DNA of 64,000 bases from an uncultured Methanosarcinaceae archaeon (GTDB taxonomy: Archaea > Halobacteriota > Methanosarcinia > Methanosarcinales > Methanosarcinaceae), in contig CAWHXP010000002.1 of assembly GCA_963833425.1 (NCBI GenBank), positions 128,001 through 192,000 of the forward strand, in the 5' to 3' direction. Position 1 is the stretch's first letter; every line of letters starts with the position of its first letter. A program made the position numbers and the translations under genes. This document shows, one piece after another, positions 23,867-64,000 of this stretch. Under the pieces are notes generated by a model. It did not search any database, was not told the DNA's origin, and saw only the letters and a program-made list of their open reading frames with translations.

Positions 23867-24274
23867 TTAATCAATGGTTCTTTTGCTCAGGATGTAAAGG
23901 ATCATGTCTGAATTCAACTTGCTTTCTCTTGAAAGTTTTTCAGCAATGACCTCATTTGTGAAGCGATCAGCTTTTAATTCCTGAATCTTTTCCAGCACAC
24001 TCTGAGAGACATTGTAATATTCGTTTATGTCTTTTCGATGTCCCCATACATCCCCTTCCAGGAGATTTATCTTTTGCATTTCCAGAAACATTTCAATTGA
24101 CTTCGAAACAGTCCTTTTGTAGGATTTTGGAAGCTGTATTGCTTCAATTTTAGGACATGTTTCAGCAAGCACAAATACATCTTTGTTAGATGGTCTGAAA
24201 GCAAGGTGGACAACCTTCTCGTTCGGATTCAGGACAGGAATTTCCTGCCGTGAACTAACTACTCTGATTTTCAT
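23867..24274 (-). CDS. DUF1699-family protein
   Basis: MKIRVVSSR..I..LNPNEKVVHLAFRPSNKD and GDVWGHRKDINEYY signature. Confidence 0.88.
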   Translation of the reverse strand: MKIRVVSSRQEIPVLNPNEKVVHLAFRPSNKDVFVLAETCPKIEAIQLPKSYKRTVSKSIEMFLEMQKINLLEGDVWGHRKDINEYYNVSQSVLEKIQELKADRFTNEVIAEKLSRESKLNSDMILYILSKRTID

Positions 24275-38318: not shown

Positions 38319-38633
38319 ATTTTCATTCCGTCTAATACCGCGCAGCTTGTTGTGGGGTTGGATACTTCCCTGAGAACAGTTATTAACGGATTGATTTGTA
38401 TTTTATACAACCTTTGTACTATAAAAAAGAGCTAATTAGTGGAAAGAGTGTATATATAAAGTACGACATTCAGTGGTTTTTTTAGTATGAAGTATCGTAA
38501 AAAATCTATTCTAGTTTTTAAATCGAAAAGTTAGTTTTATTGTTTAAAATGGTAGCAAATAAACTACCTGACTGATATAAATCTTGATTTGGAGGCAAAA
38601 AGGGATTGTTACAAAAAAACGCATTGTAACATG

Positions 38634-39487
38634 GGTTTCGTTGCAAAATCTAAGAATAAGCACGTAAATATATGGATGATAAACAAAAGTCAAAATATCC
38701 GAGAAAAATGTATCAAACTACAGAACTATTCCAAATAATTGATTGATATATTTAGCTTCATTGAGACCAGAGTAGTTTAGATTCTTGATTAGTCCTTTTT
38801 TAACCATATTCAAAGCTTCAATTCCTTTTAAAATCTTACTTGCAGAGTGAAAAGACTGAAAGCTTAGCATTGGAGCAATTATCCGCTTGATAGACCTATG
38901 ATCTTGTTCTACAATGTTATTCAAATATTTTACTTGTCTAATTTCAACTCTTTTAGACAACTTCTTTTCATTTTTCAGTTCATGTATGGCAATAGGATAA
39001 GCTGAATTTTTATCAACTGTTATTGCTCTCGGCATTTGATTGTGATTTGAACTCAATGCCTTCCTAAGGAATCTCTTTGCAGCTTTTCTATTTCGTTTTG
39101 CAGTTAGCATGAAATCTGTTTTGTTTCCACCTGAGTCAACTGCTCTGTAAAGATATTTCCATTCACCTTTTACATTTATATAAGTTTCATCAACTTTCCA
39201 TGAATCGTTAGTTGGTCTTAAGTGCTTTCTTATCTTCTTTTCTATTCCAGGGGAATATTGATGCACCCATCTTATTATAGTACTGTGATCAACTTGAATT
39301 CCTCTTTCTGCCATCATTTTCTTTAAATTTCTATAGCTTAATGCATATTTAAAGTACCCTCTTACGTTTAATAAAATAATTTCTTCTTCATAGTACTTCC
39401 ATCGAAAGGAATTTACTGGAATAATATATACTCCTAAATTTCTACTTATTTCAGTAAATCCCACTCATATTTTTTTGCAACTGAACC
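38634..39487 (-). mobile_element. IS6-family insertion sequence
   Basis: Ends GGTTTCGTTGCAAAA / TTTTGCAACTGAACC, perfect 8-bp target duplication GTAACATG. Confidence 0.95.
38718..39464 (-). CDS. IS6-family DDE transposase (open frame; true start probably further in)
   Basis: SWKVDETYI, YLYRAVDS, ITVDK, YLNNIVEQDHR. Confidence 0.9.
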   Translation of the reverse strand: MGFTEISRNLGVYIIPVNSFRWKYYEEEIILLNVRGYFKYALSYRNLKKMMAERGIQVDHSTIIRWVHQYSPGIEKKIRKHLRPTNDSWKVDETYINVKGEWKYLYRAVDSGGNKTDFMLTAKRNRKAAKRFLRKALSSNHNQMPRAITVDKNSAYPIAIHELKNEKKLSKRVEIRQVKYLNNIVEQDHRSIKRIIAPMLSFQSFHSASKILKGIEALNMVKKGLIKNLNYSGLNEAKYINQLFGIVL

Positions 39488-41421: not shown

Positions 41422-42477
41422 ATGAAAAAAGCGACATACTATAAAGCAAGTAGAAGGTTAGGCATCACTTTGTCGACCCTTTTAATACTTGTGAGTATCG
41501 CAGGTGAGGCACAACTTGCAGATATTGCAAACTCCGGCAGCAACAATATATCTGATTTAAATAAATCACTTGAAAATGACATAAAAATTCAGGACAAAGC
41601 AATTGAAATTAACCCTCAGAATTCAACGGCTTGGAGCAACAAAGGACTTGATTTAGGGCTATCAGGTAGATATGATGAAGCAATAAAAACATTTAATAAA
41701 ACAATTGAAATTAACTCGCAGAATTCAGATGTTTGGACCGGCGAGGGACTTGCTCTATATTATTTAAATAAATACGATGAAGCAATAACAGCTTACGACA
41801 AAGCAATTGAAATTAACTCTCAGAATTCAATAGCTTGGGATGGTAAAGGACTTGCTTTATATAAATTAAATAAATACGATGAAGCAATAAAAGCATTTGA
41901 CAAAGCAATTGAAATTAACTCACAGAATTCTATAGCTTGGGAAGGTAAAGGACTAGCTTTTAATAATTTAAACAAGCATGAAGAAGCAATAAAAGCATAT
42001 GATAAAGCAATTGAAATTAATCCACAGGATTCAAAAGCTTGGTCCAATAAAGGACACTCTCTCAATAACTTAAATAAATATGAAGAAGCAATGAAAGCAT
42101 ATGACAAAGCAATTGAAATTAATCCTTTTGATTCAATAGCATGGGAAGGTAAAGGACTAGCTCTTGATAACTTAAATAAGCATGAAGAAGCAATAAAAGC
42201 ATTTGACAAAGCAATTGAAATTAACCCACTGGATTCACTTACCTGGGCCTCTAAAGGAGATGCTCTAAATGATTTGAATAAATCCGATGAAGCAATAAAA
42301 GCATTTGATAAAGCAATTAAAATTAACCCACTGGATTCAATAGCATGGGAAGGTAAAGGACTTGCTTTTGATAACTTAAATAAGCGTGAAGAAGCTATAA
42401 AAGCGTACGACAAAGCAATTAAAATTAATCCGAGGTATTCAATGGCTTTGGAAGCTAAAAAAAAATTAGATAAATGA
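41422..42477 (+). CDS. Exported TPR-repeat protein
   Basis: Signal-like N-terminus; about eight 34-aa repeats (AW.GKGLAL..LNK.EEAIKA.DKAIEINP), seen as 102-bp DNA repeats. Confidence 0.92.
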   Translation: MKKATYYKASRRLGITLSTLLILVSIAGEAQLADIANSGSNNISDLNKSLENDIKIQDKAIEINPQNSTAWSNKGLDLGLSGRYDEAIKTFNKTIEINSQNSDVWTGEGLALYYLNKYDEAITAYDKAIEINSQNSIAWDGKGLALYKLNKYDEAIKAFDKAIEINSQNSIAWEGKGLAFNNLNKHEEAIKAYDKAIEINPQDSKAWSNKGHSLNNLNKYEEAMKAYDKAIEINPFDSIAWEGKGLALDNLNKHEEAIKAFDKAIEINPLDSLTWASKGDALNDLNKSDEAIKAFDKAIKINPLDSIAWEGKGLAFDNLNKREEAIKAYDKAIKINPRYSMALEAKKKLDK

Positions 42478-49148: not shown

Positions 49149-49180
49149 ATGCATAGTTTTTGTATCAAAAACTTGTGCAT
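49149..49180. repeat. Palindromic site B (ATGCATAGTTTTT-GTATC-AAAAACTTGTGCAT)
   Basis: Member of the 31-bp palindrome family, one extra base. Confidence 0.75.
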
Positions 49181-52787: not shown

Positions 52788-52818
52788 GCACAGAGGTTTT
52801 GTGATAAAATCTATGTAT
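52788..52818. repeat. Palindromic site C (GCACAGAGGTTTT-GTGAT-AAAATCTATGTAT)
   Basis: Member of the 31-bp palindrome family. Confidence 0.7.
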
Positions 52819-53695
52819 TTTATCAGTTTCAGCCAAAATAGTAGGGGCATTTTTATCTAAATTTAGGATAAGTACATATATTTTACAAAAATAACTGCAT
52901 TATTAACCGACTTTCCACAGATCCCCTTTTGATTTTAACAATCTTTCTGTTATCGCTCTTTATGAAAATCACCTTTGCTACTCAAACATGGGTTTTTGAA
53001 ATGTCCAACAACTTTCAACCCTTCTACTTCATTGAAAAGTTTTGACTTCCATTCCCCAAAATTTGAAGTAGAATAATTCTTTACATTTGTTCAATAACCC
53101 AGGAACATGGCCCTAAATTTAAAGATTCTTACTTTAAAAAAATTGTGTTGATAACAGCTCTTATCAGACCTTTAAAAGTTTGATTTTAAAACATTCTATG
53201 AGAAAGTAATTTTTATTCAGAAATTATTTTTTATTGAGTTAATTTAAAGTAATAATATACGAAATAGTACACTGTAGCTACCGAAAATCAACAAAAAATT
53301 AGGGATTATTGAAAAAGTCTATAGCAACTAAATATATATGCAATTTATAATTTTTGAGTCAAAAATGAGTAGATGGGTAGGAAGATAAAAAATTTTGTGT
53401 TATACCTAATAATAGTTGATATGATATCAAGATCTGGCGGTGCTACAATAGTAAAAGCCAAAGATTGAGGGATAATATGTGGGGTGGAGAGGACGAAAGA
53501 ATTTTAGACAAAATTCAAGATTCACTTAACAAATATGGAAATTCGTGAGTAGTCAGTGATACAAGCATGTCTTTGCTCCCACATACATTTCTTAATTTTT
53601 TTATTCTAATCGTTTAGGTCGTGTATTAATTTAAGAACGAATGTTTCTAAAAGGATTTCAGCTACTTGAAATTGGAAATTTAGGAGAATCTAGAT

Positions 53696-54235
53696 ATGAA
53701 AAAGCATATATTTCAAAAAATAAACAGAAAAATAGCTATTCTGTTGTCAGCCTTCTTTGTAGTTTCATTGACAGCAGTATCAATAGGCTCATCTTCTACA
53801 ACTCAATCAGTAACAAGTTTTGTTGATCCATATCAATATAAGTTGACAGGCCATGGCATAAACGTGATATATACCCCTATGGGTCCAGGTGCTGTACCAA
53901 ATTTAATCTATAAAGATAGAGTTGGAACAAAACATTTCATTGGTAAAAATATTACCATCGTTAGCGTAGAGAACCTTGGAACTGTAGTTGAAGTTACTCT
54001 TGATAGCAGATTGGTGGGAGTTGGCTGGTCTAAAACATCCTTCGCTTTTATATTGCCGGTATTCAATCACGAAGATCTAAATAGAACTAGAACCCCAATA
54101 CCGATCCATACAATAGGTATTAAAACGAATTACAGGGAGGGGGGTGCAACTCTTCCAGTCCACCAAATTGGGACGTCGATTGACACATACAACTTAAAAG
54201 GTACGGCATCTAAACCTCGGATTAACCCGCTTTAA
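53696..54235 (+). CDS. Secreted hypothetical protein, beta-rich
   Basis: Signal peptide KKHIFQKINRKIAILLSAFFVVSLTAVS; AGGAGA upstream; 179-aa open frame. Confidence 0.8.
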   Translation: MKKHIFQKINRKIAILLSAFFVVSLTAVSIGSSSTTQSVTSFVDPYQYKLTGHGINVIYTPMGPGAVPNLIYKDRVGTKHFIGKNITIVSVENLGTVVEVTLDSRLVGVGWSKTSFAFILPVFNHEDLNRTRTPIPIHTIGIKTNYREGGATLPVHQIGTSIDTYNLKGTASKPRINPL

Positions 54236-54494
54236 ACATCGGGTTGATCATCTCACTAACTACAAAAACAATATTTTATGGTAGTTAACTTCATGTTGAT
54301 AGTTGGAATCACAATGCATAATTTAAAAGGGTTAGTCATCTAATTTCCAGGGCAATAATGATATTCTTTAAGGTAATCTATATTGCCCTATTTCTTTTTG
54401 CGTCTTCAACAGCACTTATTACTCGGGCCTTCGTTGAAATTAATGGGAATCAGTAGTTTTGCTGACAAATATTATATTTAGATTGTTCTCACTG

Positions 54495-54525
54495 ATGCAT
54501 AGGTTTTGACACAAAAACTGCGCAT
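54495..54525. repeat. Palindromic site D (ATGCATAGGTTTT-GACAC-AAAAACTGCGCAT)
   Basis: Near-consensus copy. Confidence 0.85.
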
Positions 54526-54715
54526 TAAAAGGTTGTACTTAAGCATATTGATCACTAATTCTCAAATTTTGGGAATATTGAATGTATCGAATCTATGACT
54601 TTTTCGTATTTTTATAGAATATTACGCGCATGCTTCCTGATCTATTAGAAAAGTCAAATTAATCACAATTTTTATAGAAATTTATTTCAATCCTTTTGCA
54701 GTTAAGTGATCTCAT

Positions 54716-55573
54716 ATGACCGAGAAAAAAATTGATGAATCTTCACTCAAAAACAAAGGTTTTCTGTCTCAGAGACAAGAAAATATGTTTTCAATGCGGC
54801 TTAAAGTTGTAGGTGGAATGGTAAATGCCAATAAACTACGGGCAATTGCGGATGCTGCAGAGAAATACGGCTCTGGTTACATCCATTTAACTTCAAGGCA
54901 ACAGATTGAAGTTCCATTTGTCAAACTTGAAGATGCGGAAAAAGCGAGTTCTGAGCTTGAAATGCAGGGGATTTTCGGAGGTTCTTCTGGGAAAAGAGTA
55001 CGGGCAATTGTTGCTTGTCATGGGAACACTGTCTGTAAATATGGATTAATTGACTGCCAGAAACTTGCTTCCAAGATCGATGAGAAATATTTCGGAGAAT
55101 CTGTCCCTAAAAAACTCAAGATTGCGATCACAGGCTGCCCTTCTGCCTGTGTAAAACCCCAAGATAATGATTTTGGAATTATGGGTGTTACAAAACCTGA
55201 AATTTTCGAAGAGGATTGTATTGGTTGTGGGCTCTGTGAAAAAGCTTGTAAAATGGAAGCAGTAACAATCAAAGATGAAAAAGTAAGGATTAACAGAGAG
55301 AAGTGCGTTCTTTGCGGAGCTTGTATTACAGCTTGTCGGAAAGATGCATTGAGAGCGGGAAAAATTGGATATACGATTTTTGTTGGAGGTAGTATGGGAC
55401 GCAAGCCAAGGCACGGAATAAAATTTATTGAACTTGTGGATGAGGAGCAGCTTTTTTCAATCCTGAAAAAAACTATTGATTATTACAGAAAAGAGAGTCT
55501 TGACGGAGAAAGGGTAGGAGAACTTTTTGACAGGCTTGGAATTGAAAAATATAGGAAAGAAATTCTTTCCTAA
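54716..55573 (+). CDS. Nitrite/sulfite reductase-like siroheme-[4Fe-4S] protein with inserted 2x[4Fe-4S] ferredoxin (AsrC/Dsr-like)
   Basis: HLTSRQ, ACHGNTVC, KIAITGCPSAC, two CxxCxxCxxxC motifs. Confidence 0.9.
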   Translation: MTEKKIDESSLKNKGFLSQRQENMFSMRLKVVGGMVNANKLRAIADAAEKYGSGYIHLTSRQQIEVPFVKLEDAEKASSELEMQGIFGGSSGKRVRAIVACHGNTVCKYGLIDCQKLASKIDEKYFGESVPKKLKIAITGCPSACVKPQDNDFGIMGVTKPEIFEEDCIGCGLCEKACKMEAVTIKDEKVRINREKCVLCGACITACRKDALRAGKIGYTIFVGGSMGRKPRHGIKFIELVDEEQLFSILKKTIDYYRKESLDGERVGELFDRLGIEKYRKEILS

Positions 55574-55769
55574 AAATATCCGAAAATTTATGTATTTAAT
55601 TAACTATAATAAAATCTATCTGGCTAGTATATAATTAAATCAGATAATTTATAGCTTCTTTGATAAAATCTATGGAAAGGATTGACTATATCTGGTATCA
55701 AGATTATAATGTATGGAATCCACATCTGAAGCAGTGAGTACCTTACATTATAATCGTAAGAATGAGATC

Positions 55770-55800
55770 ATACATATGCTTTATCACAAAAACTGTGCAT
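55770..55800. repeat. Palindromic site E (ATACATATGCTTT-ATCAC-AAAAACTGTGCAT)
   Basis: Family member between two convergent 3' ends. Confidence 0.8.
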
Positions 55801-56247
55801 CAATATAAAAAAACAATTTCTTTTTCGTTGTGAAAAAAACACAGAGTCATTCATAATTTACAGATTTGTAGGTACATTTTCGTGAGAGTTGAGTTGGCTT
55901 TAAAACTTTAATATTTTTTCAAGAAAAAGGACTTTAAAATCAGAGACTTGCCAAAAAATTCTCAGATGGAAATAATGTGATCTTGAACATAATTTTCGAA
56001 TAAGGATGTTAGAGATCATATGAGCTTACATACTATCAGATGAAAGTTCAATATATTGAAGGATAAAAATAAATAAAAATTAAGTAACTATTCAATCTAC
56101 AAATAGAATTTATTTAGTCTATTTAGATAAAGTTTCTTCGTTATAGTACCAAGCTATGTAATTATAGAAATTAATTTCATTTGTTTTGATGTATGCTTTC
56201 ATATTAATCTCTTTGGAAATTTAAGATAAGTACTTACTAACGATTCT

Positions 56248-56823
56248 TTAGATTTTAATAGGAGTACTTACTAACAATTTTTTAGCCAAGTCTACCTTGT
56301 ATTCAACGGGCTCCTGGCTTAATGGCTCTGGCTCAACATGCAATACCTTTAATGTGGATATGTCGATTATATTCGGGTTCATTGCAGCTGTTTTGAATGC
56401 TATTTTTTCAAGATCTTCATCTGTTTTAGACTTGGCTCCAAAATAATCATGGATATGTACAACTTTTCCATTGCTGTCATAAAGTACACACCTTTTATCT
56501 ATCGTCGTAGCAGTAGGATTCCAAGCAAAATCAGCACGCAATACACCTCTGATCGTACAAGTCCCAGAACCTGATGGGTGAGCATACATGAAATAGGTTA
56601 TTTCAGTTGCATTAGAGATCTCAGCTGCACTCGCATTTATCTGTTTATCGACCCCAGCATCCACGACACTTGCGACTCCTACACCCGAAGTTCCCCATCC
56701 ATCTAAACCAGTCATATACGCCTCTGCAAACACATGTACACCTGATGTGTCTCCAGAATAAGTGTGAGTCCAGGCGTGGTAATTATTAGTTATCGTGGCG
56801 GGAAAAATCCATAGATTATCCAT
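56248..56823 (-). CDS. Hypothetical protein
   Basis: 191-aa ORF with ATG preceded by AGGAGGAC; no family recognised. Confidence 0.75.
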   Translation of the reverse strand: MDNLWIFPATITNNYHAWTHTYSGDTSGVHVFAEAYMTGLDGWGTSGVGVASVVDAGVDKQINASAAEISNATEITYFMYAHPSGSGTCTIRGVLRADFAWNPTATTIDKRCVLYDSNGKVVHIHDYFGAKSKTDEDLEKIAFKTAAMNPNIIDISTLKVLHVEPEPLSQEPVEYKVDLAKKLLVSTPIKI

Positions 56824-57150
56824 ATAAGTGTCCTCCTATATACTTTTAGTATTCATAATTGTACTATTATATTATGTTATATTTTTATTTAAATATTTTA
56901 AATCTTTAGATATGTATATTATATTGGTTGTTTTTTATGTAACTTGAATGGCTAAAATAAAACATTTACAACATTTAATATTAAGTTATCTATCAAAAAA
57001 ATAATTTTCAAATGAAAAATAATTCTATATTAAAAATAATTTTATATGAAATTTTTGTAATAAAAAAATTTAGCAAAATACCCACTATCTTTTTTGTTTG
57101 GCTAAATGCTTGTTTTTCCATTTGCTTAGACTCCAAAATGTTGTTTAATT

Positions 57151-57540
57151 TTATTGCGGATGCTCTAGATAATATAACGCCTGCAATGCTGGTTTGTTAT
57201 ACGGTTTAAGTTTTAGTGAATTTTTGTAATCAAAGATTGCTGCTGCTTTATCGCCTTTAATTTCGTCAAAGACTCCTTTTGCATTCCAACCAAAGAAATT
57301 GTTTGGATCAAGCATCAAGCCTTTATCTACATAATTTTCTGCTTCATCTTTTTTACCTTGATTCATTAGGGTTCAATAAAAGTGCATGGTCAATTGCTTC
57401 ACTAGCTTCATTCATCTTAAATTCACCAGCTAGAGCATTTACTTTATAATATCACGCGTTAGCATCTTTCGGATCTAGATTAATTGCTTTATTAAAAATT
57501 AATATGAAGTCATCGTTTTGTTTGGCGTTAAACAGATCTT
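57151..57540 (-). pseudogene. 3' fragment of a TPR-repeat gene
   Basis: FNKAINLDPKDANA*YYK, AIDHALLLNP and DKGLMLDPNNFFGWNAKG pieces; stop and frameshift; no 5' part beyond site F. Confidence 0.65.
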
Positions 57541-57569
57541 GCAAATGTTTTCACACAAAACCTATGTAT
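57539..57569. repeat. Palindromic site F (TTGCAAATGTTTT-CACAC-AAAACCTATGTAT)
   Basis: Family member abutting the truncated TPR fragment. Confidence 0.75.
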
Positions 57570-58130
57570 TTTTTAGATCACTTCAATTACATCAGAAGTA
57601 TGTAAGTTCTATTCAAGATACCCTTTCTTAATTACGCTCTGCTCTTCACGAACTTAGCGTTACATCTTTTGAGTACCAGTTAGTACCGTCCATCCAAGTT
57701 CGTAGGCATGATTATTGTCCCCAAAATAATATATCCTAAGTAAATTATTTTTTAGAATTGTTGATAAAAGTGCACTTTCAGGCTTTGATGGTTGACTATT
57801 TGCATCTATTGGTCTTGGAGATTTTATCACATGTTTCACCTTGCTATCGTATTTTTTTGTTGTTACTTTTAAAATACATAATTTTTTCCTGAATTATTTA
57901 AAATTAATTGCACAAAAATTAGTTTATAATTAAAATTAGCTTTCTGATGAAATTTTTTAAGACCACTAAATAATCAAATACTAATGAAGTCATATTACTA
58001 GTTTCTAAATAAGCTTATTTCAGCGTGAAACGTTGTAAAAATCAACTGCGATTTGATATTAATCACATTATTTAATTATTATAAAATAGATAATGTCTAG
58101 TCAATAGTTTTACAAGAAAGAAGAAATTTT

Positions 58131-58146
58131 GGTTCCGTTGCAAAAA
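58131..58146. mobile_element. Solo IS6 terminal repeat
   Basis: GGTTCCGTTGCAAAAA identical to the IS6 end at 63362. Confidence 0.7.
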
Positions 58147-58568
58147 TAATTTTTCTGCAGTGTGATACTATAAATTTTATTTTTTTTGAAGGAGTTAATA
58201 TTGAAGAATCTGAACTTAGAGCAGCTTACTATTTAAAATTTGAACAGCTTTCTAAAGTGAAGACATGATCCTTTCATTTATCGCGAAAATTTAGTTCTCT
58301 ATCAACTAACTAGGATGAAATTACCATATTTGAAAGATATTCTCTGCGGCTGTATACCTATATTTTGCAAAATCTTTCCTTTTTTTGCATTTCTAGCGCT
58401 TTTTGTTTTTTCATAAGTTCTTTTAATGTTGGTGGGACTATATACCCATTCTCAAGGTTTTTAATATCCGCAATGTACATGGGCTTTTTTATATAGCCAT
58501 TATTATTTGTATATACCTATTTTTTCTGCTTTTTGCCACTACAAAAAATAGGACTTATAGTTTTGCTT

Positions 58569-58599
58569 ATATGGAAATTTTCATACAATTCATGTGCAT
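58569..58599. repeat. Palindromic site G, degenerate (ATATGGAAATTTT-CATAC-AATTCATGTGCAT)
   Basis: Same 13-5-13 register, spacer type and TGTGCAT end; left arm decayed. Confidence 0.45.
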
Positions 58600-58681
58600 C
58601 TTAGGGTTAAGATAATTCAAATATTTGGACAAAAATAGAAATCAGTATTAAGATCAATAGTCTCAATATGTTTCTAGATTT

Positions 58682-59176
58682 TTAATCCATAAATTCTCGA
58701 AGAAGGCACTCGATTTTAGAGTCCAGATCTCTAGCAATAACGAGAGCTTCAGGGTTTCCGTATGGAGCCAGAAAACTGGCTATCTTGTCATACGACAAAT
58801 GCACACCATCTGGCCGCTCATCGACCAGAATTGTAACTGGAGCGTAAGATCCAGCATCGGGAATATGCTTTACCATTTCTTTCATGATGAGCGGATTGCC
58901 GATCAAAAAACGCATGACTTTCGGAGTGTTGAGCCCGTTTTCCTTACGCAAAATAGCGCCTAGATCGAATTTCATGAACATCATCAGCCCCGTTCTACCC
59001 AGACTCCTATGAATTACATTTTTCAGTTCAGCAAAGGTAAGTGCGCACTGAGTTGCTTCCATGAATTCGACCATATCTGTGTGCCCAACAGCCGCTTCTA
59101 GGGCTGCCACGATCACTTCGAATGGCTTGGAAGATATCACGCTGAATCGATCGATCTGGACTTTTTTGATAGTCAT
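58682..59176 (-). CDS. DUF302 domain protein
   Basis: FLIGNPLIMKEMVKH.PDAGSYAPVTILVDE; ATG at 59176 after GGAGA. Confidence 0.85.
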   Translation of the reverse strand: MTIKKVQIDRFSVISSKPFEVIVAALEAAVGHTDMVEFMEATQCALTFAELKNVIHRSLGRTGLMMFMKFDLGAILRKENGLNTPKVMRFLIGNPLIMKEMVKHIPDAGSYAPVTILVDERPDGVHLSYDKIASFLAPYGNPEALVIARDLDSKIECLLREFMD

Positions 59177-59359
59177 GTTTTCTTTTTCTCCGTAAAACCA
59201 TTTATATATTAGATTCCATTGCAAAAAATTAAAAGAAGATTCACCGAAATAAGTGGCAGTTTAGGAATATATATAATGAATATTTAACAAATATATAATT
59301 CCTTATCTCGAGGCTTCGTAGAATTTAGGAGCTTTTTTACTGTTTTCTGAGAAAATATT

Positions 59360-59390
59360 ATGCAGAGATTATAATGTTAAATCTGTGCAT
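59360..59390. repeat. Palindromic site H (ATGCAGAGATTAT-AATGT-TAAATCTGTGCAT)
   Basis: Family member between DUF302 and the methyltransferase. Confidence 0.75.
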
Positions 59391-59464
59391 AATTTGAACA
59401 GAAAATCCACAAAGGAAAAATCATGGATAAATTAGAATTCTCATTGGCATATTGTTATGCCTAA

Positions 59465-60421
59465 CTATTTGACAACTGCATATGCAAAGTGCTCATTTTC
59501 TTGTGTTTGATATTCATCAGTAAGTCCTTTGAAATAACGTTCTTTGATGTCTTCTGGCCTTAAATTTTCTTGGAGACTAAATCCTAAACTTGCTAGCTCA
59601 TCTCCTAAAATTGACGGATTTAAGCCAGTAATCATCGGTTCGCCTATATTTCTTAAATACTCCAACGTTTTTTTCATTCGTGGAGACGATTTCTCAGGGA
59701 TAAAAGCATCGGTATCGAGATAATCAAAAACAATAGTACTATCAGTGGGAGCAATTATTGTGATTGAGTGAAATACTGTAAATATTTCATCACGGGTCAA
59801 ATAAGGGGTAACACCAAGCCAATTAAAGAAGGTTTTAACTTTTTGGTCATAAGAAGATGAGCTAGTTAGTGCTGTTATTAGGCTTTCCTTCGTGAGATCT
59901 ATTGGAATAAAATGTAATTTTGCTGGATGTTTCCATCCCAACTCAGCAATGCGATGGAGCTTAAATTTTTGTGTAGCTGGGTGATCAACCTCAAACACTT
60001 CCAACTCTTCCATCATTTCAGGTTGTCGGAATGCAAATGTATCCATTCCTGCTCCAAGAATCACATACTGCTTTACTCCTTTTTTGATTTCATTTTTTAA
60101 GGCATCTTCAGCATATCGTGCACGGCTATTGAAAAAGCCTTCCAATTTACTGGTTGCTTGTCTTAATAACTCTGGAGTAATTGTTTGCTCAGATTGCAAT
60201 GCAGTATGAGGAAAATCATTCAACGGTAGATCATAGATCATATTTTGTTCAATTAAATGTTGTTCAATTAGTGCCCTTTTTTCCTCGGGTATCAACTCAT
60301 AGGCCAGAAAGTCGTCAAAGATTTTTTGAGTTGCATGTATGGAATGATAGGCACGCATGTAGGCTACCGTCATTGCAGTAAAGCTTGCTTGATTATCTTT
60401 CACTTTTATTGTCTCCTTCAT
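59465..60421 (-). CDS. Class I SAM-dependent methyltransferase (LCM/TIGR00027-like)
   Basis: TAMTVAYMRA, QYVILGAGMDTFAFR, FEVDHPATQ.FK, WLGVTPYL. Confidence 0.92.
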   Translation of the reverse strand: MKETIKVKDNQASFTAMTVAYMRAYHSIHATQKIFDDFLAYELIPEEKRALIEQHLIEQNMIYDLPLNDFPHTALQSEQTITPELLRQATSKLEGFFNSRARYAEDALKNEIKKGVKQYVILGAGMDTFAFRQPEMMEELEVFEVDHPATQKFKLHRIAELGWKHPAKLHFIPIDLTKESLITALTSSSSYDQKVKTFFNWLGVTPYLTRDEIFTVFHSITIIAPTDSTIVFDYLDTDAFIPEKSSPRMKKTLEYLRNIGEPMITGLNPSILGDELASLGFSLQENLRPEDIKERYFKGLTDEYQTQENEHFAYAVVK

Positions 60422-60537
60422 TTAACCATCTATTTTTAATGTAACCTCTCCAAAAAAACAATATCCAGAAAAAAATTATAACGTAAGAAAGTGAATAATG
60501 TTTTGCAGAACAGATCACAAAACTTTTCGAATGGGCT

Positions 60538-60765
60538 CTAAAAAAGTTCAATAAACTCTTCAGGTGTCAAGCCAGACTGCCTGATTATTGACTGCAAAGT
60601 TCCAACAGGAATTTCATTATAGTCAGGGATGATAACGATACGTGTTTCTTCCGATGTTTTCTTTTTCATTTTTATATGGCTGCCCTTTTGTGAAACCACC
60701 TTAAATCCTTGGCTATTGAGACCTTTTATAATCTCATGTGCTGACAGTATGGGAAGTTTTGTCAT
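60538..60765 (-). CDS. hicA: HicA-family toxin (mRNA interferase)
   Basis: GFKVVSQKGSHIKM, IIP...EIPVGTLQSIIRQSGL. Confidence 0.92.
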   Translation of the reverse strand: MTKLPILSAHEIIKGLNSQGFKVVSQKGSHIKMKKKTSEETRIVIIPDYNEIPVGTLQSIIRQSGLTPEEFIELF

Positions 60766-60976
60766 GGGAGACCTCAATTATTGTGGTAAGAATCGAGCCT
60801 GCAGCAGGGATTTTAACATCTTCATCTTCAAGATAGAGTTCTATAGCCTCTTTAAGATTATCAATTGTTTTTTCAATAGTTTCCCCCTGGCTTGCCACGT
60901 CAAGTTCTGGACACCATGATACGTACCATTCCCCTTCTTTATGGATTACTGCTGAAAACTTATAGGTCTCTTGCAT
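60734..60976 (-). CDS. hicB: Short HicB-family antitoxin (no obvious DNA-binding domain)
   Basis: YVSWCPELDVASQGETIEKTIDNLKEAIELYLE; overlaps hicA. Confidence 0.92.
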   Translation of the reverse strand: MQETYKFSAVIHKEGEWYVSWCPELDVASQGETIEKTIDNLKEAIELYLEDEDVKIPAAGSILTTIIEVSHDKTSHTVST

Positions 60977-61078
60977 ATATGAAAAAAGGTTGTATGCGCT
61001 ATAAAGATTTTCTCAAATATCATTTATTTTGAGAAAGTAATCATATCAGCGCTCATGGTTTACAAAACTGATATTTGA

Positions 61079-61109
61079 ATGCACAGATTTTTCTATAAAA
61101 CCTGTGCAT
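61079..61109. repeat. Palindromic site I (ATGCACAGATTTT-TCTAT-AAAACCTGTGCAT)
   Basis: Best-conserved copy: 12 of 13 arm positions complementary. Confidence 0.9.
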
Positions 61110-61488
61110 TAATGATGATAAAAAACAGAAACTTTGTCAGCATAATAATTGAATCTGCATCATACTTTTTGCAGTGAAATAAAAAATAACCCACATATGA
61201 CACATTTAAATCTTGAGAAGAACCTGATATCGATGAATTCCTCTGTATCTGGTTCCCTCAAGAAAGTAATGAGTTCTCGATCAGCCCACAAGATTCTTCT
61301 TAATGTATTGATAGGATAGCAAAACTATATCATTAATTGAACTGGCAATTGATTGCAATTAATTCAAAACCCAGAAAATAATAAAAAAATGTTTTATTTT
61401 TATCATTGATTGTTTTGAATGAGTATAGAAAAAATTTGGAGACCAGAAAATAAAAAAGTCTCTGGCTTACTGCTGTCTATGATTGGCA

Positions 61489-62688
61489 TTATGCTCGGAA
61501 CCGGGATGCTTCCTCCGAGCCACCTGTGGTATCACCCTCGGTATACGAACGAGCACCGGTCCCTGCCAGCTTTCCGTGGTCCACGATTAAATACTCTTCG
61601 CGGATCTGGCGTCCCTCCAGCCAGCATTCCAGAATCTCTCGAGTACCTGCCGCGTATCTTGCCTGTGCTGAGAGTGAGGTGCCTGAAGTATGTGGTGTCA
61701 TGCCATGATGTGGCATCGTCCGCCAAGGGTGATCCTTCGGCGCCGGCTGTGGGAACCAAACATCACCTGCATAGCCTGCCAGATGCCCGCTCTTCAGCGC
61801 CTGCGCCACAGCATCTCGGTCACATATTTTCCCACGAGCGCAGTTCACAAGGTAGGCTCCCCGTTTCATCTTGCTGATAAGCAAATCGCTAAACATGTTC
61901 TCTGTCTGCGGATGCAACGGTGCATTAATCGTCACTACGTCGCACAAAGGCACCATAGACTCAACATTTGAGTGATATTCCGCATTCAGCTCCTGCTCCA
62001 CTTCCACCGGCAACTGATGCCGTTCCGTGTAGTGAAGTTTAACGCCGAACGGCTTCAGCCGCCTGAGAACTGCCTCTCCAATGCGGCCTGCACCGACCGT
62101 ACCCACATGCATTCCTTCTAGATCATACGACCTGGACACCGCATCCGCGATGTTCCACCCTCCACGTATTACCCACCCATAGGCTGGTATGTAATCCCTC
62201 ACCAGCGCCAGGATCATCATAACCACGTGCTCGCTTACACTGATACTGTTCGAGTAGGTCACTTCCGCTACAGTCAGCCCGTGCTCCCCTGCCGCCTGTA
62301 GATCAACATGGTCCGAGCCGATTCCAGCGGTAATCACTAGTTTTAGTTTACGAGCCTTATTAATTCGGTCGGCAGTTAAGTACGCAGGCCAGAAAGGCTG
62401 CGAAATCACTACGTCTGCATCAATAAGCTCTCTTTCGAACACACTGTCCGACCCGTCCTTGTAAGAAGTTACCACTAAAGTATGCCCAGCAGCCTCCAGG
62501 AATTTCCGCAATCCAAGCTCGCCAGAGACACTTCCAAGCAACTCTCCAGGTCGAAAGTCGATAGCATGGGGCGTAGGTGCCGTCTGCCCATTGGGATACA
62601 GCTCTATTTCCGGTATGTCTTTTCGTGCATACGACGGTGGATAGCCCGTTATCGGGTCGTCGTACAGTACACAAAGGATTTTCACCAA
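61489..62688 (-). CDS. fdh: Bacterial-type metal-independent NAD(P)+-dependent formate dehydrogenase
   Basis: KILCVLYDDP..GYP..YAR N-terminus, SQPFWPAY, AGIGSDHVDL, GAGRIG, catalytic R285, PQP Q314, H333; collinear with the Pseudomonas sp. 101 FDH as I recall it; visibly GC-richer than flanks. Confidence 0.95.
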   Translation of the reverse strand: MVKILCVLYDDPITGYPPSYARKDIPEIELYPNGQTAPTPHAIDFRPGELLGSVSGELGLRKFLEAAGHTLVVTSYKDGSDSVFERELIDADVVISQPFWPAYLTADRINKARKLKLVITAGIGSDHVDLQAAGEHGLTVAEVTYSNSISVSEHVVMMILALVRDYIPAYGWVIRGGWNIADAVSRSYDLEGMHVGTVGAGRIGEAVLRRLKPFGVKLHYTERHQLPVEVEQELNAEYHSNVESMVPLCDVVTINAPLHPQTENMFSDLLISKMKRGAYLVNCARGKICDRDAVAQALKSGHLAGYAGDVWFPQPAPKDHPWRTMPHHGMTPHTSGTSLSAQARYAAGTREILECWLEGRQIREEYLIVDHGKLAGTGARSYTEGDTTGGSEEASRFRA

Positions 62689-63361
62689 AATAAATCACTC
62701 CTTCTCTGCCACAATGACGAGTAAGAGCTATCGAAAAACGTTCCATAACTGAAAGTTGATACACGCAGGGATGTTTGATCAATTTGTGTAGATTTCATCT
62801 TTTTGTCTCCTGTTATGTAACCATTCAGCTTAAAGAATACAACATCAATAACCATCTTTTATTAAATTCTCTTGACAAATTTCAATGAATCCGTTTTTGT
62901 AACCGCTGGATATTGACTATGTTTTTTGTAAATTAAAAAACAATTTTGGATGTATACTATTTCAAAATTGATATTAATTAATTGTTTTCAGTAGGCTGAA
63001 CAGTTATGTTTGGTTTATGTTCCATTCCCTGTGAGCGCCTATTTATAATTTAGGAGTTGCACATTCTATAATCAAATTAAAGAATAGCAAAGCCTAGTGG
63101 AAATATAAACTTAGGAGTTCGATAAATATCTAGGCATGTCAGTGATTGGTCGAAAATCTTATGAATGAAAATATTTCTATAGAACTTATGACAAACCTCG
63201 TATTCTTCGAACAACGGGCACAAGACATGAAAGTACTTGAAAGTGCTTTCATACCAAAGTTTGGATATATTAATCTTTTATAAGATTAATAATTGACAAA
63301 CAATAGTCTTTTATTTAAAACCTTAGAATGATGTACAAATAAATATCTATATATTGTACAA

Positions 63362-64000
63362 GGTTCCGTTGCAAAAAATCCTTTCTACTGATACAATAGA
63401 ATAAAAAGAAAATCAAAGATAGTAATATGCTATCTAATTCCTTTAAATGGAAGCATTATGAAGGAGAAATTATCTTATTAAACGTAAGATGGCACCTAAA
63501 ATACCCATTGAGCTATAGAAATTTAAAGGAAATGATGATAGAAAGGGGAATTCAAGTTGATCACAGTACTATAATGAGATGGGTACATCAATATTCTCCT
63601 GAAATCGAACAAAAGATAAGGAGACATTTAAGACCAACTAATGATTCTTGGAGAGTGGACGAAACTTACTTCAAGGTAAAAGGAGAATGGAAATATCTGT
63701 ATCTTGCAGTTGATTCAACTGGAAACACAGTTGATTTTATGCTAAGTGAAAAACGAGATAGAAAAGCAGCAAAGAGATTCTTTAAGAAAGCTTTGAGTTC
63801 TAATCATAACCAAATTCCGAGAGTAATAACAGTTGATAAGAATCCAGCTTATCCATCTGCTATAGGTAAACTGAAAAATGATAAAATACTACCTAAAAAC
63901 GTAGGTATTCGACAAATCAAGTATTTGAATAACATTATAGAACAAGATCATAGATCTATAAAGCGAATCGTTAATCCAATGTTAGGATTTCAGTCTTTTT
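63362..64000 (+). mobile_element. IS6-family element, runs off the window (transposase ORF from 63427)
   Basis: Left end GGTTCCGTTGCAAAA; FKWKHYEGEIILL, SWRVDETY, YLNNIIEQDHR. Confidence 0.92.

Follow-up and report, generated by a model that had tools for sequence, protein, structure and literature searches.

A 31-bp palindrome at the borders of accessory-gene segments in Methanosarcina, a likely cognate site of a small tyrosine recombinase family

The window analyzed here, a 64,000-nt stretch of DNA from an uncultured Methanosarcinaceae archaeon, contains between 52.8 and 61.1 kb a series of accessory genes that alternate with copies of a 31-base palindrome, which raises the question of what the palindrome is and whether it mobilizes the genes between its copies. 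A first-pass annotation had read the array as a set of recombination sites at which a host tyrosine recombinase such as XerA may capture and shuffle gene modules. The explanation that now appears probable is that small tyrosine recombinases (~190 to 235 aa), a family encoded on Methanosarcina plasmids and chromosomes, have the palindrome as their cognate DNA site.

Six palindromes separate accessory segments in the window

A weight matrix derived from 78 distinct copies, all from other genomes and thus independent of the window, identified six copies of the motif AT[G/A]CA[T/C/G]AGnTTTT-RYNRY-AAAAnCT[A/G/C]TG[C/T]AT. Their scores were 38.6, 36.4, 34.2, 27.4, 27.0, and 26.8 bits; the best noncopy position, 32177, scored 8.3 bits, and in 200 shuffles the per-shuffle maximum had a mean of 2.5, a 95th percentile of 9.2, and a top value of 16.8 bits. 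With at most 3 mismatches, the literal consensus of the first-pass annotation recovered only the copies at 54495 and 61079 (zero expected from 100 shuffles); with at most 8 mismatches, a scan of the whole window returned the six matrix-supported copies and no others. The copies, with mismatches counted against that consensus, are as follows.

52788..52818, no strand: P1, palindrome copy, GCACAGAGGTTTT GTGAT AAAATCTATGTAT; 27.4 bits, 7 mismatches; lies 247 bp past the tfuA stop codon; left flank resembling flank element Y by eye, unreported by nhmmer
54495..54525, no strand: P2, palindrome copy; 36.4 bits, 3 mismatches; flank at 54446 to 54493 Y-like (nhmmer E of 0.0031)
55770..55800, no strand: P3, palindrome copy; 34.2 bits, 5 mismatches; flanking genes convergent; right flank grouping with the Y/X flank family
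57539..57569, no strand: P4, palindrome copy; 26.8 bits, 5 mismatches
59360..59390, no strand: P5, palindrome copy; 27.0 bits, 5 mismatches; 75 bp past the stop codon of the LCM methyltransferase gene
61079..61109, no strand: P6, top-scoring palindrome copy; 38.6 bits, 1 mismatch; Y element nearby at 61121 to 61187 (nhmmer E of 3.3e-13)
49149..49180, no strand: degenerate 32-bp copy; right arm longer by 1 base, left arm a good half-site; 9 mismatches; upstream of the HAD-ycaO-tfuA segment
754..785, no strand: weak decayed copy; one arm good, the other with an indel; 12 mismatches; half-site match on the minus strand only, full-matrix score of -1.9 bits

Six of the seven array copies originally listed were therefore retained, at 27 to 39 bits; the seventh, at 58569, was rejected (2.4 bits, 9 mismatches). 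The two further copies, at 49149 and 754, are both present, as degenerate forms with a 1-nt indel. No copy was found by the weight-matrix scan between ~1 and 49 kb, in agreement with the earlier observation that the housekeeping stretch is free of them. Conservation across the nine aligned window positions was confined to the 31-mer, and an extra flank element was present on one side at four window sites.

The six copies lie within 8.3 kb and separate accessory segments of 1.2 to 1.8 kb, and Pfam searches showed the gene content originally listed to be broadly right. The segments, together with the one beyond P6, are listed below.

52819..54494, plus strand: segment A, orphan 179-aa protein (53696 to 54235; hydrophobic stretch near the N terminus, one homologue only, no match in a Pfam search) and a dispersed ~200-bp repeat (54229 to ~54450)
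54526..55769, plus strand: segment B, small sulfite/nitrite reductase-like gene (54716 to 55573; Pfam NIR_SIR, 9.8e-38, NIR_SIR_ferr, and Fer4)
55801..57538, minus strand: segment C, gene for a 191-aa hypothetical protein (56248 to 56823) and a TPR fragment (57151 to 57366; Pfam)
57570..59359, minus strand: segment D, solo IS6-type terminal repeat (58131) and a DUF302 gene (58682 to 59224; Pfam, 2.5e-8)
59391..61078, minus strand: segment E, LCM-family methyltransferase gene (59465 to 60421), HicA (60538 to 60777), and HicB (60734 to 60976) (Pfam)
61110..63356, minus strand: segment F, 2-hydroxyacid/formate dehydrogenase family gene (61489 to 62688; 2-Hacid_dh_C, 1.5e-49), lying between P6 and an IS6 copy (63357 to 64000)

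Gene orientation in the array is mixed, and the genes probably have promoters of their own in the long intergenic regions. No recombinase gene is encoded in the 64-kb window.

Palindrome copies lie at the ends of homology blocks

When one genome per species was scanned, at least 112 loci carried the palindrome, and 76 of these came from at least 22 assemblies labeled Methanosarcina, Methanosarcinaceae, Methanosarcinales, or Methanobacteriota, in which the copies are dispersed and often clustered. A single MAG had at least 16 strict motif matches.

The copies mark where accessory-gene blocks end, and the arrangement of these blocks varies among related genomes. Among 509 distinct block endpoints, 22 were within 10 bp of a copy, compared with a null mean of 3.4 and maximum of 9 in 200 draws. 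Site-partner pairs were at a boundary in 28 cases and internal in 3, where random 31-mers taken from intergenic DNA yielded 8.8 and 14.4; the sample consisted of loci picked for carrying the motif, with crude ORF calling and each pair counted in both directions. Of 13 pairs checked, 12 had 74 to 94% identity over 200 bp inside the block and 2 to 62% outside. The only clean example with both ends is a histidine kinase segment that runs from site to site in loci L004 (10001 to 13339) and L006 (7688 to 10031) between unrelated flanks; the remaining shared blocks have a copy at one end only. In the window, segment F belongs to a block shared with L037 (61071 to 63354), whose 88% homology ends ~8 bp past P6, and segment D is 89% identical to L074.

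A small tyrosine recombinase gene is linked to the palindrome

A PF00589 family was found in 5 of 47 sequences, 0.04 to 1.4 kb from a palindrome copy. In L003, a canonical copy and, at a distance of 53 nt, a 29-bp variant are directly upstream of an intact integrase gene, and the plasmids of M. barkeri 227 and MS (39.6 and 41.7 kb) have their sole copy, with the same 29-bp variant, directly upstream of an L003-homologous gene for a roughly 200-aa tyrosine recombinase. In the plasmids of M. vacuolata, Kolksee, and Wiesmoor, the encoded integrase shares 52% identity with the L003 protein, and one variant palindrome per plasmid, ACGTCAGGTTTT-N5-AAAACCTGATG (beginning ACCGTCAGG in Wiesmoor), precedes the integrase gene by 101 nt. 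In total, six loci have a 29-bp variant as a second site 53 to 54 nt from the palindrome. L063 is an exception, with an intact integrase gene that has no upstream copy and the nearest one 1.4 kb downstream. Because each of the five plasmids has a single copy beside the recombinase gene and the site covaries with the enzyme, these sequence comparisons point to a dedicated enzyme-site pair.

In its residues and predicted fold, the integrase has the appearance of an active tyrosine recombinase. Across 21 integrase sequences, R58, K88/K90, K145-x-x-R148, H171, and Y180 do not vary, and the structure model has a pLDDT of 89. Among the PDB matches listed, 25 entries down to rank 45 were all tyrosine recombinases, the lowest three (ranks 46 to 49) were protelomerases, and the best was archaeal XerA (4a8e; E of 5.4e-4). 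The enzyme and site resemble the XerA/dif system in this fold and in a palindrome whose inner arms are A/T-rich. However, the protein is 60 to 100 aa shorter than XerA and falls below the cutoff of the NCBIfam XerA/integron-integrase model (21.7 bits for the L063 protein and 33.5 bits for the L043 integrase fragment; cutoff, 220), and archaeal dif, according to excerpts of two reports (PMC2958812, PMC8371274), is an 11-6-11 site present in single copy, versus six copies in 8.3 kb here. The reading as recombination sites and modules is partly supported by the block-end positions and the linked small integrase, but nothing points to XerA as the acting recombinase; the candidate belongs to a separate family of ~200 aa.

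The 13-5-13 inverted arms noted in the first-pass annotation have the geometry of a tyrosine recombinase core site, and the spacer of 5 bp (7 counting the inner T/A pair) is atypical for the 6- to 8-bp class. At spacer positions unconstrained by the search pattern, a purine occupied position 14 in 146 of 156 arms and a pyrimidine position 15 in 124 of 156. Arm pairs 3/29, 6/26, and 9/23 were Watson-Crick complementary about as often as independent positions would be, with no arm-to-arm covariation or compensatory changes; since the half-sites vary independently, their sequences fit protein binding better than a hairpin. Half-site scores of at least 17 bits were reached by 136 arms within full sites and by 26 “solo” arms, most of which belong to full sites that carry a 1-nt indel, and the unit is the full palindrome. 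Many tyrosine recombinases require identical overlap regions. Among 55 pairs of neighboring copies, the 5-nt spacer was shared directly in 2 and inversely in 3, no excess over random pairs (1.6 and 1.2), which counts against the recombination reading.

In the proposed mechanism, a recombinase dimer would bind the two 12- to 13-bp arms, with strand exchange within the central 5 to 7 bp. A circular DNA (plasmid or excised segment) whose site recombined with a copy in the chromosome would become inserted between two copies, recombination between two chromosomal copies would delete or invert the intervening DNA, and repeated events at existing copies would generate arrays such as that at 52.8 to 61.1 kb. 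Segments could in this way be captured and shuffled as units, and the enzyme would act on the window sites in trans, because none is encoded in the window.

Alternative explanations for the palindrome

The palindrome might instead be a dispersed repeat, either selfish or a relic, that resembles REP elements or forms the core of a MITE-like element and was perhaps seeded by plasmid integration; the genes between copies would then not be mobilized as units, and the block boundaries would be secondary, arising through ectopic homologous recombination or an adjacent insertion preference of other elements. This explanation is possible but considerably less probable. It accommodates the many copies per genome, 97 of 106 of which are extragenic (92% intergenic), the ~110-nt one-sided extension of Y plus X at 29 of 210 flanks (a ~140-nt repeat with the palindrome), the second dispersed repeat of ~200 bp that directly adjoins copies in the window, L014, and L077, and the ATAGC/GCTAT spacer class in 17 of 106 copies, suggestive of copying. 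The single-ended placement in most shared blocks and the unrelated spacers of neighboring copies also favor it, M. spelaei is reported in an excerpt of PMC11602168 to be among the most MITE-rich archaea, and ectopic homologous recombination could place breakpoints at a dispersed 31-bp repeat with no dedicated enzyme. Against it, there are no target-site duplications around the 31-mer, few solo arms, neither hairpin covariation nor a GTAG-type (GTAG/CGTC) tag, and no transposase that recurs beside copies apart from the unrelated IS6, and the pairing of one copy with a covarying recombinase on five plasmids points to a dedicated enzyme and site.

That the palindrome is a transcription factor operator of a stress or accessory regulon, bound by an integrase-like repressor or another dimeric regulator, with clusters as coregulated islands, is unlikely. 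Symmetric and independent half-sites, the strictly intergenic location, and many redox/stress neighbors (catalase, SOD, nitroreductase, FMN reductase, Usp, and sulfite reductase) are in keeping with an operator, as are the two palindromes that separate the integrase gene's start from its promoter region, a placement that would fit autoregulation; the upstream palindrome could be an autoregulatory operator only. Distances to the start codon, however, vary between 29 and 3119 bp without a favored value, and convergent genes flank 27 of the 89 classified sites. In shared blocks containing a gene, the site was 3′ of the gene in 10 cases and 5′ in 3, and in three genomes (the window, L067, and L026, the latter two having a P5-equivalent site with an identical AATGT spacer) it follows the LCM stop codon while the downstream gene differs. 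Pure regulation would also leave the excess at block boundaries unexplained. Very improbable is an RNA-level role of the 13-bp hairpin as a terminator or 3′-end stabilizer: the palindrome could form a near-perfect hairpin, and 3′ ends are in slight excess (102 of 178 site-gene adjacencies), but the arms lack compensatory changes, the T-run is inside the stem and not followed by a T-rich flank, no Rfam family matched at E values up to 1 or up to 5, and 14 of the 89 sites lie between divergent genes.

Comparison with known systems

A plasmid-borne Methanosarcina tyrosine recombinase has been described before, namely SsrA of the M. acetivorans plasmid pC2A, which an excerpt of PMC9569500 presents as dispensable for replication, with its site and role not known and with chromosomal homologues; compared by description only, pC2A being absent from the plasmid matches, it differs in its size of ~320 aa, derived from the published deleted interval. 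The pdif modules of Acinetobacter plasmids (XerC/XerD sites) likewise place short accessory modules, including toxin-antitoxin pairs, between recombinase-type palindromes, in differing contexts and with no recombinase gene inside the modules. The sites here, in contrast, are chromosomal and archaeal, are symmetric 13-5-13 rather than 11-6-11 with distinct arms, and have as candidate enzyme a dedicated small integrase rather than a host Xer. Integrons (IntI, attI, and attC) also string together accessory units of one or two genes with recombination-type sites between them, mostly at the 3′ end of the unit's gene, and the integrase genes of L003 and the plasmids, with a site directly upstream, recall intI-attI. 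Unlike attC, a folded site of 55 to 141 nt, the palindrome is a 31-bp double-strand site; unlike integron cassettes, the genes are in mixed orientation and probably have their own promoters. No integrase adjoins the arrays studied, and the integrase here is no nearer IntI than other tyrosine recombinases.

REP/BIME elements and the Neisseria dRS3/NIME mosaic consist of multicopy short extragenic palindromes that are clustered, lie beside small repeats, and border variable segments, all of which applies to the palindrome. It differs from them in its lack of hairpin covariation and tag and in its linkage to a tyrosine recombinase gene rather than to a RAYT gene, none of which was present in the 834 kb examined. 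Cre/loxP and FLP/FRT resemble the system in their inverted arms of ~13 bp around a short spacer, in the single plasmid copy adjoining the recombinase gene, and in the tyrosine recombinase fold and catalytic residues, which are predicted here. Their spacer is 8 bp, compared with 5 (or 7) bp here, where the enzyme has only ~200 aa, and the palindrome is distinguished further by dozens of chromosomal copies, dispersed and clustered, and by the second, 29-bp site.

Palindromic sites and gene content of the window

A scan of the whole window (G+C content, 34.8%) with up to 8 mismatches returned exactly six copies of the 31-bp palindrome. The first-pass annotation had listed nine, which differed from its consensus by 1 to 12 mismatches; taken literally, that consensus found 2 copies in the window at no more than 3 mismatches, with 0 expected by chance. 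To avoid circularity, a weight matrix was built from 78 distinct copies, all from other genomes. With this independent matrix, the six copies scored 27 to 39 bits, the runner-up position in the window scored 8.3 bits, and the 95th percentile of the maximum in 200 shuffled windows was 9.2 bits. Six of the nine listed positions were thereby retained, one was dropped, and two were found to carry indels, as follows:

754, weak copy; one good arm, the other with an indel
49149, 32-bp copy; right arm with one extra base
52788, 31-bp copy, first of the six
54495, 31-bp copy
55770, 31-bp copy
57539, 31-bp copy
58569, dropped (2.4 bits)
59360, 31-bp copy
61079, 31-bp copy, last of the six

A longer repeat around the sites was rejected, since alignment of 190 bp per site showed no conservation outside the 31-mer across the nine aligned sites.

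The accessory genes that the annotation had placed between the copies, including the remnant of an IS6 element, were recovered as described, and the matrix scan agreed with its statement that the housekeeping stretch at about 9 to 47 kb (mutS, mutL, hisD, and genes for a Hel308-type helicase, RLI, and TyrRS) is free of copies. The HAD, ycaO, and tfuA genes lie 5' of the first copy. No integrase gene was found within the 64-kb window. Elsewhere in the window, a TPR-repeat gene (41422-42477) is built of 102-bp units that gave many staggered matches with the TPR genes of other loci, and a gene of the RNase_H_2 superfamily (PF13482; 46431-47180) lies at the border between the housekeeping and accessory regions. 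A pyridoxal-dependent decarboxylase gene (PF00282) at 1024-2071, near the weak palindrome at 754, is split between two or more ORF pieces (1024-1305, 1661-2071) and is probably a pseudogene. A 179-aa ORF at 53696-54235 has a hydrophobic stretch at its N-terminus; it matched nothing in Pfam, and a search of about 5.8 billion proteins yielded one homologue, at 94% identity.

Distribution of the motif across genomes

A degenerate-pattern scan of one genome per species identified at least 112 loci. Among the matches listed, 76 loci came from 22 assemblies labelled Methanosarcina, Methanosarcinaceae, Methanosarcinales, or Methanobacteriota, and the remaining 36 were for the most part lone matches of lower score in unrelated bacteria, although some of them, such as L036, were contigs with further copies and Methanosarcina-like sequence. 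True copies were seen in contigs binned as Smithella, Ignavibacteria, and Patescibacteria (L036, L021, and L087/L088), which are probably mis-binned Methanosarcina contigs; L036 and L021 carry several copies each, and IS6 and TPR sequences of L036 recur in the window. The loci used for comparison come from genomes other than that of the window; none is orthologous to it or spans ycaO-tfuA.

The refined motif, AT[G/A]CA[T/C/G]AGnTTTT-RYNRY-AAAAnCT[A/G/C]TG[C/T]AT, has inverted symmetric arms in a 13-5-13 or 12-7-12 consensus geometry with RYNRY at the center, which agrees with the two inverted 11- to 13-bp binding arms and short central region of tyrosine-recombinase core sites (loxP, FRT, or dif type). 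Even though the spacer was left free in the search pattern, it was biased, with a purine at position 14 in 146 of 156 arms and a pyrimidine at position 15 in 124 of 156. At a threshold of 18 bits or more, 106 copies were found in 46 loci plus the window (834 kb), and 97 of these were intergenic, in sequence of which crude ORF calls span 55%. Arrays of four to seven copies occurred in other loci, with seven copies in L020 and five each in L006, L026, L052, and L067. The genes in array-rich loci were mainly single accessory genes, including those for catalase, SOD, nitroreductase, FMN reductases, and Usp on the redox/stress side, together with acetyltransferases, methyltransferases, HicAB, VapBC, ParE, sensor kinases, and pentapeptide and TPR proteins.

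Boundaries of shared sequence at palindromes

When the loci were compared all against all, 22 of the 509 distinct endpoints of homology blocks fell within 10 bp of a copy (null mean, 3.4; maximum, 9 in 200 draws), in loci that had been selected for bearing the motif and that carried crude ORF calls. Site-partner pairs lay at a block boundary in 28 cases and internally in 3, and random intergenic 31-mers from the same loci gave 8.8 and 14.4, respectively; the pairs were counted in both directions, so that about 15 distinct pairings underlie the counts. By a crude measure, 12 of 13 checked pairs were 74 to 94% identical over the 200 bp on the block side and 2 to 62% identical outside it. The window's dehydrogenase segment, for instance, matched L037 at 88% through 380 bp of noncoding DNA, and the alignment ended about 8 bp past 61079. 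The copy that lies 75 bp past the stop codon of the window's LCM methyltransferase gene recurred in L067 and L026 with the same AATGT spacer, and the next gene differed. Where a shared block contained a gene, the copy lay at the 3' side of the gene in 10 cases and at the 5' side in 3. A module bounded by sites in different contexts, as in pdif modules, was found once in clean form at both ends: in L004 and L006, a histidine-kinase segment has a copy at either end, and the flanks beyond are unrelated.

Sites common to different genomes had an unchanged spacer in 7 of 13 cases. Among 55 pairs of adjacent sites, identical spacers were found in 2 direct and 3 inverted pairs, with 1.6 and 1.2 expected at random; a sharing of spacers between neighbors, as would mark recent insertion, was not seen. 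An arm-by-arm comparison did not place a crossover within the palindrome, the arms being too conserved (26 distal and 24 proximal differences, each of 169 positions).

A predicted small tyrosine recombinase family near the sites

In a search for recombinases within the arrays, Pfam profiles run on 150 ORFs from 14 array-rich loci matched nothing of the kind beyond IS6 transposases, a DDE fragment, and an integrase fragment that is unrelated. Clustering of 635 ORFs from the loci revealed a family of short PF00589 proteins, with intact members in L003 (209 aa) and L063 (188 aa) and fragments in L035, L059, and L008; in all five loci, a copy of the palindrome lay 0.04 to 1.4 kb from the integrase gene. 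The L063 and L003 proteins scored 35.6 and 33.8 bits against Phage_integrase (PF00589; cut-off, 27.1). In the protein database, the family comprises 208 or more clusters; most relatives there are already annotated as PF00589, and those with a name are entered as site-specific integrases, from M. mazei, M. barkeri, M. hadiensis, and other species.

The catalytic residues of tyrosine recombinases are R, K, H-x-x-R, H/W, and a nucleophilic Y. Invariant positions in 21 aligned sequences included R58, K88/K90, R148, H171, and Y180, and an invariant K145 instead of H stood three positions before R148 (K145-x-x-R148). A structure model (pLDDT, 89; pTM, 0.87) matched 25 PDB entries among the hits listed to rank 45, all of them tyrosine recombinases, followed by protelomerases at ranks 46 to 49; the matches listed included XerA, Tn1549 Int, XerH, VchIntIA, and lambda Int (TMq, 0.5 to 0.58), with archaeal XerA as the best PDB match listed. 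Against the NCBIfam XerA model, the L063 protein scored 21.7 bits and an integrase fragment from L043 scored 33.5 bits, far short of the cut-off of 220. By profile, catalytic residues, and modeled fold, the candidate partner of the palindrome is thus a predicted tyrosine recombinase.

Linkage of site and enzyme on plasmids

In L003, a canonical palindrome is followed by a 53-nt gap, a related 29-bp palindrome (the 29-bp variant), about 38 nt, and the integrase start codon. A translated search found the integrase family on five Methanosarcina plasmids; in a phage collection searched in the same way, no relatives were found. The plasmids of M. barkeri 227 (39.6 kb) and MS (41.7 kb) each gave just two matches to the matrix, one canonical copy (42.4 bits) and the 29-bp variant, 53 nt apart, both directly upstream of the point where homology to the integrase family starts. 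The RefSeq integrase ORFs of these records begin about 210 nt upstream of that point (L113, 27993-28814 of NZ_CP009529; L116, 12407-13228) and as annotated cover both palindromes, so that their start is probably mis-set. The plasmids of M. vacuolata, Kolksee, and Wiesmoor encode a more distant integrase (52% identity with the protein from L003), and each carries a single variant palindrome, ACGTCAGGTTTT-N5-AAAACCTGATG, 101 nt upstream of the gene; on the Wiesmoor plasmid it reads ACCGTCAGG.... Two enzyme clades are thus accompanied by two site variants, so that site and enzyme change together, and one site lay upstream of the integrase gene on each of the five plasmids and in L003. The arrangement of palindrome, 53- to 54-nt gap, and 29-bp variant also occurred without a recognizable integrase gene in L007, L034, and L073.

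The window's housekeeping stretch includes a DUF1699 gene (23867-24274) with homologues on all five plasmids, of which those of M. vacuolata and Kolksee have it beside the small integrase gene; L007, L018, and L047 have homologues as well.

Interpretation and comparison with known elements

In the best-supported reading, the small recombinase family has the palindrome as its cognate site. The window array would then consist of chromosomal copies at which DNA segments became joined; we infer that the recombinase binds the site, that strands are exchanged there, and that segments move as units. Several observations weigh against the cognate-site reading: the window itself has no integrase gene, the histidine-kinase segment is the only clean both-ends module, and the spacers of neighboring copies are no more alike than those of random pairs. 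The same breakpoints could have come from ectopic homologous recombination at a dispersed 31-bp repeat, and the palindromes beside integrase genes could be operators only. An operator at a fixed distance from the promoter, one of the alternatives the annotation had raised, fits the copies poorly as far as start codons and gene orientation can tell: distances to start codons span 29 to 3,119 bp, and of the 89 copies that could be classified, 27 are flanked by convergent genes and 14 by divergent ones.

The other alternative it had raised, fused ends of an IS or MITE, was rejected because target-site duplications were absent (direct repeats of 2 to 8 bp around the site were at control level) and arms almost never occurred alone; the IS6 terminal repeat also differs in sequence from the palindrome. 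A hairpin or terminator was rejected for lack of arm covariation, of a T-run after the stem, and of an Rfam match: the arms vary independently, with Watson-Crick pairing at positions 3/29, 6/26, and 9/23 close to the rate for independence. REP/REPIN elements were rejected for lack of compensatory arm changes and of a terminal tag, and no Y1-type transposase was found among 168 proteins scanned from the loci. An archaeal dif site would be expected in a single copy per replicon, near the terminus, versus six in 8.3 kb here, and pdif-type bounding sites (XerC/XerD) differ in arm length, spacer, and sequence from the palindrome, dif being given as 11-6-11 in PMC2958812. As for integrons, an IntI gene with attI and a cassette promoter would be expected at the array head, and the window has no integrase gene; attC sites are long imperfect hairpins recombined as single strands, and the palindrome is symmetric, 31 bp long, and shows no covariation of its arms; and cassettes would be expected to be co-oriented and mostly promoterless, but gene orientation is mixed and intergenic gaps are 75 to 880 bp. 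The array and its sites thus lack defining features of integrons, dif, REP elements, and MITEs.

In outcome, the putative gene modules bounded by recombinase sites resemble integrons and pdif modules; in parts, site and enzyme resemble pairs of the Cre/loxP type. A broader reading, which we put forward tentatively and hold at somewhat less than an even chance, is that a clade of Methanosarcina has its own gene-shuffling system, with an outcome like that of integrons or pdif modules and parts of another kind, in which FimB-sized plasmid and chromosomal tyrosine recombinases recombine dozens of dispersed 31-bp palindromes, inserting, excising, and reordering 1- to 2-kb accessory modules of redox-stress genes, toxin-antitoxin pairs, methyltransferases, and sensor kinases, with arrays like that of the window as the product. 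If the enzyme-site pair is active, it would be an undescribed route of gene gain and reordering in methanogens, would help to explain the gene-poor, accessory-rich islands of these genomes, and might offer Methanosarcina genetics a compact tool, a recombinase of about 200 aa that uses a site of 31 bp.

Full-text searches turned up no account of either the motif or a site used by the small integrase; the supplementary MITE catalogue of PMC11602168 may list parts of these repeats. The passages of PMC9569500 on plasmid pC2A describe its tyrosine recombinase, SsrA, as non-essential and its site as unknown, and the MITE census in PMC11602168 places M. spelaei among the most MITE-rich archaea.

Repeats beside the palindromes

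A dispersed repeat of about 200 bp at 54229-54450, which starts at the stop codon ending the 179-aa ORF, has copies of 72 to 88% identity in at least 15 Methanosarcina loci; its conserved stem (CAGGGCAATAATGA...ATATTGCCCT) precedes a T-run, and the repeat adjoins the palindrome in the window, L014, and L077. A one-sided flank element of about 65 to 85 nt, Y, lies directly beside the palindrome at 61121-61187 and 54446-54493 in the window, at 10033-10108 in L004, at 10032-10115 in L076, and elsewhere; of its 30 nhmmer matches, 17 begin within 15 nt of a copy. A second flank motif, X (TTTTACAGAACTTTCAGTACACTGCC), often follows Y and stands alone elsewhere; it occurs on both sides of the palindrome in L046, and in L052 a hairpin made of two X arms lies between a pair of copies. 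IS6-family (DDE_Tnp_IS240) copies are present in the window at 38633-39464 and 63357-64000, a solo IS6-type terminal repeat (GGTTCCGTTGCAAA) without an adjoining transposase remnant lies at 58131, and close IS6 copies are present in many palindrome-bearing loci.
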